Shown here: piece after piece, positions 6,306 through 16,812 of the stretch
Layout: each line of letters starts with the position of its first letter
How positions within the stretch are numbered: the first letter of the stretch is position 1
Origin: Escherichia coli
GTDB taxonomy: Bacteria; Pseudomonadota; Gammaproteobacteria; Enterobacterales; Enterobacteriaceae
Reading direction: 5' to 3' (one strand)
NCBI RefSeq assembly: GCF_029227855.1
Contig: NZ_CP074356.1
Length of the DNA stretch: 64,000 bases
Position numbers and translations under genes: made by a program
The notes under the pieces: model-generated
Databases searched by the model: none
What the model saw: only the letters and a program-made list of their open reading frames with translations
Told to the model about the DNA's origin: nothing

Positions 6306-6878
6306 ATGCGTGGATTACGTCCGACATTATCGACATTTCTCTTTCTGTTATTGATTACTGGCGGCGTTTACCCGCTGCTAACCACCGTGCTGGGGCAATG
6401 GTGGTTTCCCTGGCAGGCCAACGGTTCGTTGATTCGTGAAGGTGATACGGTGCGCGGTTCGGCATTAATCGGGCAGAATTTTACCGGCAACGGCTATTTT
6501 CAGGGTCGCCCGTCGGCAACGGCAGAAATGCCCTATAATCCACAGGCTTCTGGCGGGAGCAACCTGGCGGTCAGTAACCCTGAGCTGGATAAACTAATAG
6601 CCGCACGCGTTGCTGCATTACGGGCCGCTAACCCGGATGCCAGCGCGAACGTTCCGGTTGAACTGGTGACGGCATCGGCAAGCGGGCTGGACAATAACAT
6701 CACCCCGCAAGCGGCAGCCTGGCAGATCCCACGCGTGGCGAAAGCGCGCAATCTCAGCGTTGAACAGCTCACGCAGCTGATCGCAAAATACAGCCAACAA
6801 CCGCTGGTGAAATATATCGGCCAGCCGGTCGTCAACATTGTCGAACTCAATCTGGCGCTGGATAAACTTGATGAATAA
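6306..6878 (+). CDS. kdpC: Potassium-transporting ATPase subunit C (190 aa)
   Basis: Second ATG of ORF 6282..6878 gives the 190-aa K-12 length ([25 protein letters not shown]...); the upstream ATG at 6282 is an alternative start. Confidence 0.85.
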
Positions 6879-9555
6879 CGAACCTTTACGTCCCGACCCC
6901 GATCGTCTGCTGGAACAAACTGCCGCGCCGCATCGGGGGAAGCTGAAAGTTTTCTTCGGTGCCTGCGCAGGCGTCGGAAAGACCTGGGCGATGCTGGCAG
7001 AGGCCCAGCGACTGCGGGCGCAAGGGCTGGATATTGTGGTTGGCGTGGTTGAAACCCACGGGCGGAAAGATACCGCCGCAATGCTGGAAGGGCTGGCTGT
7101 TCTGCCGCCCAAACGCCAGGCGTACCGTGGGCGGCATATCAGCGAGTTTGATCTCGATGCCGCCCTCGCCCGCCGTCCGGCGCTGATCTTAATGGACGAA
7201 CTGGCGCACAGTAATGCGCCAGGTTCTCGTCATCCTAAACGCTGGCAGGACATCGAAGAACTGCTGGAAGCGGGCATTGATGTTTTCACTACCGTCAACG
7301 TTCAGCATCTGGAAAGCCTGAATGATGTGGTCAGTGGCGTCACCGGAATTCAGGTACGAGAAACCGTGCCCGATCCTTTTTTCGATGCCGCCGACGACGT
7401 GGTGCTGGTGGACTTGCCCCCGGACGATCTGCGTCAACGGCTGAAAGAAGGTAAAGTCTATATTGCCGGGCAGGCGGAACGCGCCATTGAACATTTTTTT
7501 CGTAAAGGTAATCTGATCGCCCTGCGCGAATTGGCACTGCGCCGTACTGCCGATCGCGTAGATGAGCAAATGCGCGCCTGGCGGGGGCATCCTGGCGAAG
7601 AGAAAGTCTGGCACACGCGCGACGCGATCCTTTTATGCATCGGCCATAACACTGGTAGTGAGAAACTGGTCCGCGCGGCGGCGCGGCTGGCGTCACGGCT
7701 GGGTAGCGTCTGGCACGCGGTGTATGTTGAAACCCCTACCCTGCATCGCTTACCGGAGAAAAAACGTCGGGCAATTCTCAGCGCCTTACGTCTGGCGCAG
7801 GAGCTGGGCGCAGAGACGGCAACACTTTCTGATCCAGCGGAAGAGAAAGCGGTAGTGCGTTATGCCCGTGAACATAATCTCGGCAAGATTATTCTCGGTC
7901 GCCCAGCCTCGCGCCGCTGGTGGCGTCGGGAAACGTTTGCTGACCGACTGGCGCGCATCGCCCCCGATCTCGATCAGGTGCTGGTCGCGCTTGATGAACC
8001 ACCCGCTCGCACGATTAACAACGCGCCGGATAGCCGCTCTTTTAAAGACAAGTGGCGGGTACAGATTCAGGGATGCGTGGTTGCCGCCGCGTTATGCGCC
8101 GTTATCACCTTAATTGCCATGCAGTGGCTGATGGCGTTTGATGCCGCCAACCTGGTGATGCTGTATCTGCTTGGCGTGGTGGTGGTGGCACTGTTTTATG
8201 GGCGCTGGCCTTCGGTGGTCGCCACCGTCATTAATGTGGTGAGTTTCGATCTCTTTTTTATCGCCCCACGCGGCACGCTTGCCGTCTCTGATGTGCAATA
8301 TCTGCTGACCTTCGCGGTGATGTTAACCGTCGGGCTGGTGATCGGGAACCTTACTGCGGGCGTGCGTTATCAGGCGCGGGTAGCCCGTTACCGCGAGCAA
8401 CGCACACGGCACTTATATGAAATGTCGAAAGCTCTGGCGGTGGGCCGCAGTCCGCAGGACATCGCCGCCACCAGCGAACAGTTTATTGCCTCCACGTTTC
8501 ATGCCCGCAGTCAGGTGCTGTTACCCGATGACAACGGTAAATTGCAGCCGTTAACACATCCGCAAGGAATGACCCCGTGGGACGATGCCATCGCGCAGTG
8601 GAGTTTTGATAAAGGCCTGCCTGCGGGCGCGGGCACCGACACGTTACCCGGTGTACCGTACCAGATTTTGCCGCTAAAAAGCGGCGAGAAAACCTACGGA
8701 CTGGTGGTGGTGGAACCGGGGAATCTGCGCCAGTTGATGATCCCGGAACAGCAGCGCCTGCTGGAGACATTTACGTTGTTAGTCGCCAATGCCCTTGAGC
8801 GGCTGACACTGACCGCCAGCGAAGAACAGGCGCGGATGGCAAGCGAACGTGAACAGATCCGCAACGCCCTGCTGGCGGCGCTTTCGCATGATTTACGCAC
8901 TCCGCTCACGGTGCTGTTCGGTCAGGCAGAAATCTTAACGCTCGATCTGGCGAGCGAAGGATCGCCCCACGCCCGCCAGGCCAGCGAGATTCGTCAGCAT
9001 GTGCTGAACACCACCCGACTGGTGAATAATCTACTGGATATGGCACGAATTCAGTCCGGCGGCTTTAATTTGAAGAAAGAGTGGTTAACGCTGGAAGAAG
9101 TGGTCGGCAGCGCGCTGCAAATGCTGGAACCGGGTTTATCGTCGACCATCAATCTTTCTCTGCCAGAACCGCTGACCTTAATCCACGTTGACGGGCCACT
9201 CTTTGAACGGGTGCTGATTAATCTGCTGGAGAACGCGGTGAAATACGCGGGGGCGCAGGCCGAAATTGGTATCAATGCCCACGTTGAGGGCGAAAATCTA
9301 CAACTGGATGTCTGGGATAACGGCCCCGGTCTTCCACCAGGCCAGGAGCAGACGATATTTGATAAGTTTGCTCGCGGGAATAAAGAGTCGGCGGTACCGG
9401 GTGTAGGGCTTGGGTTGGCAATTTGTCGGGCGATAGTGGATGTACACGGCGGCACCATTACCGCATTCAACCGACCGGAAGGTGGTGCCTGTTTTCGTGT
9501 TACACTTCCCCAGCAAACAGCCCCTGAACTTGAAGAATTTCATGAGGATATGTGA
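6871..9555 (+). CDS. kdpD: Sensor histidine kinase KdpD (894 aa)
   Basis: ATG at 6871 inside ORF 6838..9555 gives [16 protein letters not shown]... (894 aa as in K-12); C-terminal HisKA/HATPase region; 5' end overlaps kdpC stop. Confidence 0.95.
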
Positions 9556-10229
9556 CAAACGTTCTGATTGTTGAAGATGAACAGGCTATTCGTCGCTTTC
9601 TGCGCACGGCGCTGGAGGGCGACGGGATGCGCGTCTATGAGGCCGAAACGCTGCAACGCGGCTTGCTGGAAGCGGCTACCCGTAAGCCAGATTTGATTAT
9701 TCTCGATCTCGGCCTGCCCGATGGTGATGGGATTGAGTTTATCCGCGACCTGCGCCAGTGGAGCGCAGTGCCAGTGATTGTGCTTTCCGCACGCAGCGAA
9801 GAGAGCGACAAAATCGCCGCGCTGGATGCCGGAGCGGATGATTACCTGAGTAAGCCGTTTGGCATTGGCGAATTGCAGGCCCGTCTGCGCGTCGCTTTAC
9901 GCCGCCACTCCGCCACCACCGCGCCCGATCCGCTGGTGAAATTTTCCGATGTTACCGTCGATTTAGCAGCTCGTGTGATCCATCGCGGTGAGGAAGAGGT
10001 GCATCTCACCCCGATTGAGTTCCGCCTGCTGGCGGTGCTGCTGAATAACGCCGGGAAAGTGCTCACCCAGCGCCAGCTCCTTAACCAAGTGTGGGGGCCA
10101 AACGCGGTCGAACACAGTCATTATTTGCGTATTTATATGGGACATCTGCGACAAAAACTGGAGCAAGATCCCGCCCGCCCCCGCCACTTCATTACTGAAA
10201 CCGGTATTGGGTATCGGTTTATGCTTTAG
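9552..10229 (+). CDS. kdpE: Response regulator KdpE (225 aa)
   Basis: ORF track 225 aa [17 protein letters not shown]... OmpR-family; start overlaps kdpD stop (ATGA). Confidence 0.95.
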   Translation: MTNVLIVEDEQAIRRFLRTALEGDGMRVYEAETLQRGLLEAATRKPDLIILDLGLPDGDGIEFIRDLRQWSAVPVIVLSARSEESDKIAALDAGADDYLSKPFGIGELQARLRVALRRHSATTAPDPLVKFSDVTVDLAARVIHRGEEEVHLTPIEFRLLAVLLNNAGKVLTQRQLLNQVWGPNAVEHSHYLRIYMGHLRQKLEQDPARPRHFITETGIGYRFML

Positions 10230-10242
10230 GCGGTTAAATGCT

Positions 10243-10328
10243 GGATCCGGCATGAACGCCTTATCCGACCTACACATCGTCCCGTAGGCATGATAAGACG
10301 CGTCAGCGTCGCATCAGGCATGGCACTC
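10243..10328. repeat. REP/BIME-type palindromic repeats in the kdpE-ybfP spacer
   Basis: ggatccggcatgaacgccttatccgacctaca and gtaggcatgataagacgcgtcagcgtcgcatcaggca are typical REP units. Confidence 0.65.
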
Positions 10329-10340
10329 ATCGCGATATGT

Positions 10341-10835
10341 TTAATGCGTATTTATCTGTTTCAACTCTTGCTGGCATTTTTCTGACTGGCAGCGTCGCAA
10401 CTCGATAATCCCGACATGCATCATCGAGCCAAAAAATCCGCTTTCGCTGACATAATCCTCATTAACAATCGGTCGAGTGCCAGGCTTGCCCTGGCAAACC
10501 CGCATAAAAAATGAGGTGTAGCACTGCCAGCCACGATTTAAACTGCTCTTTTCTTGTGGTGACATATCGTGAAGATAAGTAAGTTCTTTTTCGTTCCCGC
10601 CTGACAACTGCCAGCGGCGGGTATTATCAGGTAAGTTATCGCCACGGCAATTTGTCTTACACCGGGAAGGCGCAATATTTACCGCAATGCTACCCGTTAA
10701 TCCTCTGGTTTTATCTTTAGGGGTCAGTAACCAGTCACCAGCTAATGATGATTGTTCAGGTTGGGCGCATGCTGTCAGCAGTAGTGTGGCGGTAATTAAT
10801 GCCACTCTGACGACCAGACTCCTTTTGGTCTTCAT
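10341..10835 (-). CDS. ybfP: Lipoprotein YbfP (about 164 aa)
   Basis: ORF 10341..10886; likely start at internal MKTKRSLVVRVALITATLLLTAC (signal peptide with lipobox LTAC); matches recalled YbfP. Confidence 0.75.
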   Translation of the reverse strand: MKTKRSLVVRVALITATLLLTACAQPEQSSLAGDWLLTPKDKTRGLTGSIAVNIAPSRCKTNCRGDNLPDNTRRWQLSGGNEKELTYLHDMSPQEKSSLNRGWQCYTSFFMRVCQGKPGTRPIVNEDYVSESGFFGSMMHVGIIELRRCQSEKCQQELKQINTH

Positions 10836-10883
10836 TTTGAATTCCCTTGAGCTATTCAGTTTGTTGGCAAAGTGCTCGTTGTT

Positions 10884-10992
10884 CATGCCGGATGCAGCGT
10901 GAACGCCTTATCCGGCCTACAAAATAGCGCAAATTCAATATATTGCACCATCTTCCCAGGCCTGATAAGCGTAGCGCATCAGGCAGTCATAA
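10884..10992. repeat. REP/BIME repeats between ybfP and pgm
   Basis: gccggatgcagcgtgaacgccttatccggcctaca ... ggcctgataagcgtagcgcatcaggca. Confidence 0.65.
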
Positions 10993-11039
10993 GCAAAAAA
11001 GGGCGATCTTCCGACCGCCCTTTTTCTTATTAAATGTGT

Positions 11040-12680
11040 TTACGCGTTTTTCAGAACTTCGCTAACAATCTCAACCGCTTCTTTCTCAATTTGCTTGCGA
11101 TGTTCTTCCCCAAGGAAGCTTTCACAATAGATCTTATAGGCGTCTTCCGTGCCTGACGGACGCGCGGCGAACCAGCCGTTGTCAGTCATCACTTTCAGAC
11201 CGCCGATAGAAGCACCATTGCCCGGTGCCGCAGTCAGGCGCGCGGTGATCGGGTCACCTGCCAGGGTGCTGGCGCTCACCATTTCCGGAGACAGCTTAGA
11301 CAACGCCGCTTTTTGTGCGGAAGTCGCAGCTGCCTGCAAACGGTTGTAGCTCGGCGCACCAAAGCGTTTTGCCAGTTCGTTGTAGTGTTCCTGCGGGTTC
11401 TTACCGGTGACAGCGGTGATTTCCGCCGCCAGCAGACACATGATGATGCCGTCTTTGTCGGTGGACCACGGCGTGCCGTCGAAACGCAGGAAGGAAGCCC
11501 CTGCGCTCTCTTCGCCGCCAAAGCCGAAGCTGCCGTCGAACAGACCATCAACAAACCATTTGAAACCTACCGGTACTTCTACCAGCTTACGGCCCAAATC
11601 ATTGACCACACGGTCGATCATCGCAGATGAAACCAGCGTTTTACCGACAGCAACATCTTTGCCCCACTGCGGACGGTGCTGGAACAGGTAGTTGATCGCC
11701 ACCGCCAGGTAGTGGTTCGGATTCATCAAACCTGCCGGAGTGACGATACCGTGACGGTCATAATCCGGGTCGTTAGCAAACGCCAGATCGAACTTATCAC
11801 GCAGTGCCAGCAGACCCGCCATCGCACACTCGGAGGAGCAGTCCATACGGATCGCACCGTCTTTATCTAGGTGCATAAAGCGGAAGGTTTGATCGACCTG
11901 ATCGTTAACGATGGTCAGGTTGAGATTGTAATACTCGCCAATACGCTTCCAGTATTCGATACCGGAACCGCCCAGCGGATCAACGCCAAGCGTCAGGCCC
12001 GCTTTCTGAATCGCCGCCATATCAACGATATCGGCCAGCCCTTCCACGAACGGCTGCACCAGATCCTGCTCTTTCACATGACCGGATGCCATCGCTTCGT
12101 CGAGGGAGATACGCTTCACACCTTTCAGGCCATCGGCCATCAGTGCGTTGGCCCTGTCTTCCACCACTTTGGTGACGTTGGTATCAGCCGGGCCACCATT
12201 TGGCGGGTTGTACTTGATACCACCATCTTCCGGCGGGTTATGGGACGGTGTAATCACGATACCGTCTGCCAGCGGGCCACCTTTTTTATTGTGAACCAGG
12301 ATGGCATTGGAAACGGCAGGCGTTGGAGTGAAGCCATTGTTTTCCTGCACAATAACATCAACGCCGTTCGCTGCCAGCACTTCCAGAACGGAAATGAACG
12401 CAGGCTCGGACAGGGCGTGAGTATCTTTACCCACATAGCAAGGGCCAGTGATGCCGTTTTTCGCACGTTCTTCAGCAATTGCCTGAGCGATCGCCAGAAT
12501 GTGCGGCTCGTTAAAGCTGTGGCGCGCTGCACTGCCACGGTGACCGGAAGTACCGAATTTCACCGCGTGCTCCGCATTCCCTGCTTCTGGTTTCAGTACA
12601 TAATATTGCGCCGTCAGTTGGGCGACGTTAATCAAATCACTCTGTTGTGCAGGTTGGCCTGCACGATTGTGGATTGCCAT
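11040..12680 (-). CDS. pgm: Phosphoglucomutase (546 aa)
   Basis: ORF 11040..12731; internal start [21 protein letters not shown]... gives the 546-aa K-12 length; phosphoserine motif [11 protein letters not shown]. Confidence 0.95.
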
Positions 12681-16094: not shown

Positions 16095-16812
16095 AATAAA
16101 TATCCTCCGGCATAGCCGGAGGTTTTTCAAATGCGCCTATAAGGCTCTCTTACCAGCCGCGCCCTAACAGGCGCACACGATCTGACATTTGCATCCAACT
16201 TCGTTACTTACGGCCCGTAAACGGGCTGCCCGGATAGGGAATCGATAACTGCTCTCCCATTTTATCCTCTTCAAGCTGGTGCTTTATGTAATCCTGTATC
16301 TTCGCCGTGTTCTTACCCACCGTATCGACGTAGTACCCTCTGCACCAGAACTCCCTGTTCCTGTATTTGAATTTCAAATCACCAAACTGCTCGTAAAGCA
16401 TCAGACTGCTTTTCCCTTTCAGATATCCCATAAAGCCGGATACGCTCATTTTGGGCGGGATCTCCACAAGCATATGGATATGATCTGCACAGCATTCAGC
16501 TTCCAGAATCCGTACACTTTTCCACTCACACAGCTTTCTCAAAATACTGCCTATTGCTCTACGCTTCTCTCTGTAGAACACCTGTCTTCGGTATTTTGGC
16601 GCAAAAACTATGTGATATTTACAGTTCCATCGGGTGTGCGCTAAGCTCTTTTCGTTCCCCATTGGGACCCCCTTTTGATTTCTTGTTTGACACTTGCAGT
16701 TGCCAGACCGCAAGGTGTTTTAACAAATCAAAAGGGGTTTTAATAACTGGCTTAAAGCTGAAAGCTTTCCGGAACCCCCAGCCTAGCTGGGGGTTTTCTG
16801 TGCACAAGAAAA
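16095..16812 (-). mobile_element. IS200: IS200 insertion sequence (about 0.71 kb; IS200/IS605 family), boundaries +/- 15 bp
   Basis: Contains the 152-aa HUH/Y1 transposase gene, a perfect subterminal palindrome cccccagc-cta-gctggggg (16775-16793) upstream of tnpA, and a second hairpin cctccggc-ata-gccggagg (16104-16122) near the other end. The fur-chiQ spacer is about 0.7 kb longer than I recall for K-12. Confidence 0.85.
16204..16662 (-). CDS. tnpA: IS200 transposase TnpA (152 aa)
   Basis: ORF 16204..16713; start at MGNEKSLAHTRWNCKYHIVFAPKYRR...; HUH motif HIHMLVEI and catalytic-Tyr region YYVDTVG. Confidence 0.92.
   Translation of the reverse strand: MGNEKSLAHTRWNCKYHIVFAPKYRRQVFYREKRRAIGSILRKLCEWKSVRILEAECCADHIHMLVEIPPKMSVSGFMGYLKGKSSLMLYEQFGDLKFKYRNREFWCRGYYVDTVGKNTAKIQDYIKHQLEEDKMGEQLSIPYPGSPFTGRK

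Follow-up and report, generated by a model that had tools for sequence, protein, structure and literature searches.

The interval between kdpE and pgm in the window (the whole 64-kb stretch of Escherichia coli DNA analysed here) is best read, with a probability of roughly 80%, as an established natural allele of this locus, from which the speFL-speF-potE module is missing and in which a BIME-ybfP-BIME arrangement stands in its place. The locus is an ordinary natural gene-content polymorphism and not a fresh deletion: its form is already present in the published genome of strain 042 and in 252 other complete genomes, and nothing at it departs from known biology. A literature search found no paper describing the four kdpE-pgm haplotypes set out below.

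As described in a first-pass annotation of the window, kdpE and ybfP are separated only by REP palindromes; these are a Y-REP and an inverted Z-REP. The genes and repeats of the interval and its flanks are the following.

6871–9555, plus strand: kdpD, sensor kinase, left flank (ORF; annotation of the near-identical region in strain JNEC-KY178)
9552–10229, plus strand: kdpE, response regulator, with stop codon TAG at 10227–10229 (ORF; JNEC-KY178 annotation)
10230–10340, no strand: kdpE-ybfP spacer, a degenerate BIME (Y-REP, 10-nt linker, inverted Z-REP, 21-nt tail)
10240–10273, plus strand: left Y-type REP, GCTGGATCCGGCATGAACGCCTTATCCGACCTAC (4 mismatches to the working consensus; first copy of a 37-nt direct repeat)
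10284–10319, minus strand: inverted Z-type REP (1 mismatch to the working Z consensus; matched by 0 of 100 shuffles)
10341–10835, minus strand: ybfP, orphan lipoprotein of 164 aa (ORF; complement of the stop codon at 10341–10343)
10836–10886, no strand: ybfP upstream region (a similar 40-nt stretch is also found 5' of the kdpE relic ybfI in K-12)
10887–10920, plus strand: right Y-type REP (1 mismatch to the working Y consensus; matched by 0 of 100 shuffles; second copy of the direct repeat)
10921–10955, no strand: A+T-rich 35-nt linker, as in BIME-1/RIP (delimited by alignment with the ybfP-less form, which shares it)
10956–10984, minus strand: inverted Z-REP of the right BIME, its GTAG end changed to CCAG (also present in the ybfP-less form)
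10996–11025, no strand: G+C-rich hairpin between A and T runs, a bidirectional terminator (inverted repeat; common to all haplotypes)
11040–12680, minus strand: pgm, phosphoglucomutase, right flank (ORF; JNEC-KY178 annotation)

The positions of the kdpE stop codon and of the ybfP stop-codon complement give a spacer of 111 bp. Like ybfP and pgm, seqA is on the minus strand of the window. Read from kdpE, the spacer consists of a 10-nt linker, the Y-REP at 10240–10273, a further 10 nt, the inverted Z-REP at 10284–10319, and the 21-nt tail. Both BIMEs are extragenic, lying between genes, and both have alternating orientation: Y(+), 10 nt and Z(-) on the left, and Y(+), the 35-nt A+T-rich linker and Z(-) on the right. 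Mismatches were scored against working Y and Z consensus sequences, and by these we take 10240–10273 and 10887–10920 to be Y-type and 10284–10319 to be Z-type. Independent support for the spacer being made of dispersed repeats comes from two sources. A 1.6-kb query containing it matched at least five places per genome, with a median of 22, in 5,425 E. coli genomes, and a search of the spacer for structured RNA against Rfam gave only sub-threshold matches, to REP-derived families including naRNA4. The matches to naRNA4 (CssrE) and ES036 (CssrF) fall on the BIMEs, at 10233–10349 and 10881–10963, all below the gathering score, as is expected of REP-derived sequence; the ES036 match is on the linker/Z region of the right BIME (10921–10984). 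As in BIME-1, whose linker binds IHF, the right A+T-rich linker (10921–10955) is a putative IHF-binding site. The predicted fold of the left spacer barely beats shuffled sequences (z of -1.4 and -2.0), so no claim is made for the left BIME as a terminator. The terminator hairpin and right BIME folded together give z of -4.6 and -7.3.

Junction queries over 5,426 complete E. coli genomes distinguish four structural forms of the kdpE-pgm locus.

Form I: kdpE-speFL-speF-potE-terminator-pgm, without ybfP, ybfG or ybfI; found in NRG857C (B2), O103:H2 (B1) and E. albertii; 3,197 of 5,426 genomes (potE-terminator-pgm junction)
Form II: the K-12 form, with speF-potE plus ybfG'-ybfP; found in MG1655; 1,837 of 5,426
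Form III: the form in the window, kdpE-BIME-ybfP-BIME-terminator-pgm; found in strains 042 and A10; 253 of 5,426
Form 0: kdpE-BIME-terminator-pgm; found in TB06051, XH990 and JX21CE8; about 52 of 5,426

The count for form 0 is the difference between the 305 genomes matched by its query and the 253 of form III, which are inferred to be included in the 305 because the flanking pieces of form III are close enough together to join into one place. It agrees with an independent figure, the 299 genomes of the 5,426 with no speF match by megablast, which is near the sum of 253 and about 52. Some 87 genomes are matched by none of the junction queries for the four forms. Direct adjacency of kdpE and ybfP is thus neither the K-12 nor the majority state, being found in only about 5% of complete E. 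coli genomes (253 of 5,426); the operon occupies the kdpE-pgm site in 93% of E. coli.

Comparison of the window with the speF-carrying haplotypes places the loss of homology within a few bases of the kdpE stop codon, which is TAG in the window and TGA in both K-12 and the B2 strain NRG857C. Against K-12, homology ends at 10227, in the kdpE stop codon, and restarts at 10340, at the ybfP stop codon. Against form I (NRG857C and O103:H2) it ends at 10224 and restarts at 10991, so that 763 bp of BIME-ybfP-BIME sequence (10228–10990) replaces the operon module, exactly from the stop codon of kdpE up to the shared terminator. The hairpin at 10996–11025 sits after potE in the speF-carrying genomes, and it is there that homology to them resumes. 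The difference therefore runs from the stop codon of kdpE to the left foot of the pgm terminator, and the speFL-speF-potE module missing from the window amounts to about 3.9–4.2 kb.

The first-pass annotation had also noted the absence of speF-potE, and this holds for the full window. Neither speF, potE nor speFL was detected in its 64 kb by tBLASTn with K-12 SpeF, PotE and SpeFL or by BLASTN with the whole K-12 islet, and no genes for an ornithine decarboxylase of ~732 aa or an antiporter of ~439 aa occur downstream of kdpE within it. Nor did these searches detect any leftover piece of ybfG, ybfI, speF or potE there. The absence extends to the chromosome of JNEC-KY178, the nearest complete genome, to which the window is near-identical. 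A chimeric query joining 2.2 kb of the window (chiP-glnS) to 1.6 kb of speF ranked JNEC-KY178 first, with one matching place on its chromosome; chiP-glnS alone also gave one place, and the speF part therefore has no match on this chromosome. This bears out one of the two explanations offered in the annotation, that of a strain lacking the islet.

Between the window and JNEC-KY178 there are 42 SNPs within an rhs core gene, a single SNP at 16097 and, past 16806, three mismatches; the window also has an IS200 insertion of 705 bp. Of the 43 differences in the first 16.1 kb, 42 lie within 243–1388, in the 3' part of the RHS core gene, a variable toxin-tip region. The IS200-like element (16101–16805) is between fur and chiQ in the window and absent from JNEC-KY178; its ORF (16204–16662, minus strand) encodes a 152-aa Y1 transposase (Pfam Y1_Tnp, E 4e-38).

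A kdpE locus without speF need not mean a genome without speF. TB06051, a form 0 strain in which the native site is empty, has a complete speFL-speF-potE cassette elsewhere, on an island beside cdiA/cdiI and IS remnants (locus L096, 8235–12175; 888–892 kb). Its speF-potE is a third allele, 94% identical to that of form I and 92% to that of K-12, and the module as a whole has three alleles in E. coli, 6–8% apart, of which one is that on the island beside cdiA. Over the 5,426 genomes, speF shows a bimodal distribution of identity to the K-12 allele, at 99% or more in 1,412 and 90–95% in 3,095; this divergence is far above that of typical E. coli core genes, and the allele class roughly follows the form of the locus (II versus I). 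An extra place matching the speF query, from speF or from another gene, was also seen in A10, a form III strain. A widespread second speF was considered and rejected: the 81 genomes with matches at 60–80% identity appear to be cross-matches to speC (the row listed is speC, at 75%), although K-12 speC shares no 28-nt word with speF. The 720-aa proteins annotated as E. coli SpeF were likewise set aside as irrelevant to the window; they are on a mobile island and full-length in just six of the 5,426 complete genomes. One such region (locus L095, 10001–13589) encodes an ornithine decarboxylase of 720 aa, 90% identical to SpeF at the amino-acid level, together with an amino-acid permease of 443 aa, and its island neighbours are DUF3987, helicase, DprA-like and IstB genes. 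Across the E. coli pangenome, speF is reported to be often pseudogenised (PMC13322260).

The gene order that the first-pass annotation gave for K-12, with speF-potE and ybfG-family pseudogenes between kdpE and ybfP, matches the annotation of MG1655, in which the order is pgm, ybfP, ybfG (pseudogene), ybfI (pseudogene), potE, speF, speFL, kdpE, with 5,149 bp between ybfP and kdpE. K-12 and the window have the same neighbourhood around this interval, with kdpFABCDE on one side and pgm, seqA and ybfF on the other, and both carry ybfP and the pgm-proximal BIME; they differ in that the window is without speFL, speF (b0693 in K-12, with b4803 and b0692 for speFL and potE), potE, ybfG' and ybfI', while K-12 is without the kdpE-proximal BIME. 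Relative to form I, K-12 has an insert of 1,663 bp comprising a REP fragment, a kdpE relic, ybfG', ybfP and a BIME, flanked by a duplication of ~29 bp of the potE/pgm terminator. The relic is ybfI (locus L002, 6722–6885), a copy of the last 140–160 nt of kdpE including the stop codon, at 88–90% identity, which indicates that the ybfG-ybfP block was once directly downstream of a kdpE, an adjacency of the kind found in the window. Its source could not be narrowed by comparison with 15 kdpE 3' ends, since the E. coli alleles all lie at 88–90% identity to it and that of E. albertii at 85%. With ybfI on one side, the speFL-speF-potE module of K-12 lies between two directly repeated copies of the kdpE 3' end. 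A 39-nt REP-like fragment beyond potE is found in K-12 only. The K-12 form is thus composite; an intact kdpE-ybfG-ybfP-pgm haplotype was not found among the 80 species loci compared. For the kdpE-pgm locus K-12 is a minority composite and not a reference state, and naming gaps against it as "deletions" is misleading.

Outside E. coli, content of the interval is also variable. The operon lies between kdpE and pgm in most Enterobacteriaceae, including E. albertii, Salmonella, Kluyvera, and many Enterobacter and Citrobacter species. Several other Citrobacter and Enterobacter species and two non-coli Escherichia lineages (L007 and L008, both with kdpE-BIME-pgm) are without speF-potE there. Three loci have a SpeF-like gene at this position (80–82% amino-acid identity) with no adjoining potE: Pseudocitrobacter faecalis (L026), Enterobacter sp. 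kpr-6 (L036) and an Enterobacteriaceae MAG, UBA7338 (L039). No speF-potE is found at the site in Serratia, Pantoea, Dickeya, Pectobacterium, Yersinia or Rahnella, where kdpE either adjoins pgm or is separated from it by about 1–5 kb of other content. Close-spaced examples in Pantoea (L071) and Serratia (L067) have a terminator hairpin alone as the kdpE-pgm spacer. The kdpE-pgm interval is a small hot spot of gene-content variation in the Enterobacteriaceae. The simplest reading of this distribution is that the operon entered the site early in the family and was then lost repeatedly, and that the loss behind the allele in the window occurred within Escherichia, before this strain.

The main alternative is that this lineage never had speF-potE, so that the window would keep a pre-insertion state to which the BIMEs and ybfP were added later. 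It accounts for the empty sites of deep outgroups such as Serratia and Pantoea and for kdpE-BIME-pgm in L007 and L008, and the difference begins and ends exactly where the operon module does, which is the pattern expected of an insertion polymorphism. However, E. albertii, Salmonella, Kluyvera, many Enterobacter and Citrobacter species and the great majority of E. coli carry the operon at the same site, so an empty allele would have had to be retained as a very long-lived polymorphism from before the divergence of these genera, and the partial forms with speF but not potE (L026, L036 and L039) indicate that losses do occur there. A retained ancestral empty site is accordingly the weaker alternative to early entry and repeated loss, and is considered unlikely.

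A recent, strain-specific deletion, in which a K-12-like locus would have lost 5.1 kb by REP recombination and the REPs of the spacer would be the scar, was the second explanation put forward in the first-pass annotation. The spacer is indeed made of REPs, and recombination between REPs is an established route to rearrangements. However, in K-12 neither kdpE nor ybfP has a REP immediately downstream, and there is likewise none at the kdpE-proximal border of the operon in form I (NRG857C); with no kdpE-proximal REP in either form I or form II, a REP-REP deletion of speF-potE is without support. The window has no remnant of ybfG, ybfI or potE, its ybfP is 6% diverged from the K-12 copy, and the identical junction is present in the 253 form III genomes, strain 042 among them, as well as in two contigs with still more diverged ybfP (L089 and L090). 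Of the annotation's interpretation, therefore, the strain without the islet stands and the deletion scar falls, as very improbable; the REPs instead bracket a ybfP unit. An assembly artefact, by which collapse or misjoining at the REPs removed the operon, scarcely needs consideration even though repeats are classic sites of misassembly, as this stretch is found unbroken, with the same sequence, in 253 complete genomes produced by many laboratories; among the matches listed, 30 of 30 cover the full 1.6-kb query in one aligned piece, and one of these is at 100% identity.

The spread of the arrangement indicates that it is old and segregating and not a private deletion. Strain 042 shares the allele at 98.2% identity over 7.6 kb, and among form III genomes the flanks diverge by up to 2% and ybfP by about 12–17%. 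In L089 (E. coli) and L090 (a metagenome contig), where ybfP is only about 83–88% identical to that of the window, the left BIME and the junctions of the window are kept. The ybfP of the window is the orthologue of K-12 b0689, at 93.9% nucleotide identity. Comparison of four copies (window, 10341–10835; L002, 5413–5907; L089, 8001–8474; L090, 160–654) gives three allele classes with 83–94% nucleotide identity, whereas identity is about 97% in the genes on either side and almost complete in the neighbouring BIME. The L089 copy is frameshifted, with a shorter C-terminus, and encodes 157 aa. The YbfP N-terminus (MKTKRSLVVRVALITATLLLTAC) is a signal peptide with the lipobox LLLTAC. No Pfam family was matched, none of the 80 species loci retrieved by way of KdpE contains ybfP, and no homologue was found outside E. 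coli and metagenomes in a search of 5.8 billion proteins (27 of 27 homologues). From the alleles compared, this orphan lipoprotein may be under fast or diversifying evolution. It has been listed as an accessory gene (PMC11390585).

The relation between forms 0 and III is visible in the repeats. The two Y-REPs of the window are part of 37-nt direct repeats (10238–10274 and 10885–10921), 86% identical and 647 bp apart, which bracket a 647-bp unit consisting of the inverted Z-REP, ybfP and the second Y-REP. Alignment shows a single Y-REP at the matching position in TB06051, XH990 and the L007 strain, so form III equals form 0 plus one REP-bounded unit of 647 bp. The left REP of the window with its 10-nt linker (GCGGTTAAATGCTGGATCCGGCATGAACGCCTTATCCGACCTACA) is one mismatch from the single Y-REP of TB06051, and the REP variant of strain 042 is closest to that of XH990, also of form 0. 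As each form III variant has a close form 0 counterpart, the event either recurred or the flank was exchanged by recombination. The kdpE genes of ybfP-less E. coli strains are ~4.4% different from that of the window although the adjoining REP is nearly identical, and simple descent therefore fails to account for what must be a mosaic region. Tandem copies of a kdpE 3' fragment with a BIME (and terminator) were also seen in L008 (Escherichia sp., 9840–9900) and L090 (reverse complement, 380–470), which makes duplication joins recurrent at this site.

A history consistent with these comparisons can be proposed. The operon would have been lost in an older Escherichia lineage, before this strain, either deleted outright or exchanged for another allele via the conserved flanks in kdp and pgm; the borders hold no remnants or repeats that would tell one from the other. 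The ybfP gene would have been gained or lost by recombination between Y-REPs, integrating or excising the REP-bounded unit, and the allele would then have spread among strains by ordinary homologous recombination.

A more tentative extension, which we think possible but somewhat less probable than not, is that kdpE-pgm is a site at which the speFL-speF-potE module and the REP-bounded ybfP unit compete as cassettes. The K-12 form may then be a speF-potE haplotype joined to a ybfP haplotype, speFL-speF-potE may move as a unit, and the REPs may serve as portable sites for inserting and excising a gene. With or without competition between cassettes, the four haplotypes and the ybfP unit between its REPs neatly illustrate how such repeats can mark the edges of a gene-sized insertion or deletion.

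SpeF is the inducible ornithine decarboxylase and PotE the putrescine-ornithine antiporter, with speC encoding a constitutive decarboxylase. From these roles, the strain would be predicted to have neither an acid-inducible ornithine decarboxylase nor a putrescine-ornithine antiporter, and its putrescine would be expected to come from constitutive speC and from speA/speB. The outcome of an ornithine decarboxylase test, tolerance of mild acid, and the export of putrescine could be affected.

A close counterpart of the locus is that of the EAEC strain 042 (NC_017626), which has the same architecture and junctions and a ybfP 99.6% identical to that of the window, but differs in that its left REP and linker are another sequence variant and its kdp genes are ~2% different. 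At the level of process, the REP-mediated tandem duplications and deletions of enterobacteria make the same use of short dispersed REPs as portable homology at join points, whereas here the recombination is deduced by comparing alleles. The repeats themselves resemble the REP/BIME elements of E. coli (Y, Z1 and Z2; BIME-1/RIP) in being imperfect palindromes of 34–36 nt ending in CTAC/GTAG, in the opposite orientation of Y and Z, in their location between convergent genes, and in being multicopy in every E. coli genome. They depart from the typical arrangement in two respects: the left Y unit is degenerate, with four mismatches and a weak fold, and the two Y units form direct repeats around a protein-coding gene, so that ybfP behaves as a REP-bounded unit of insertion and deletion.
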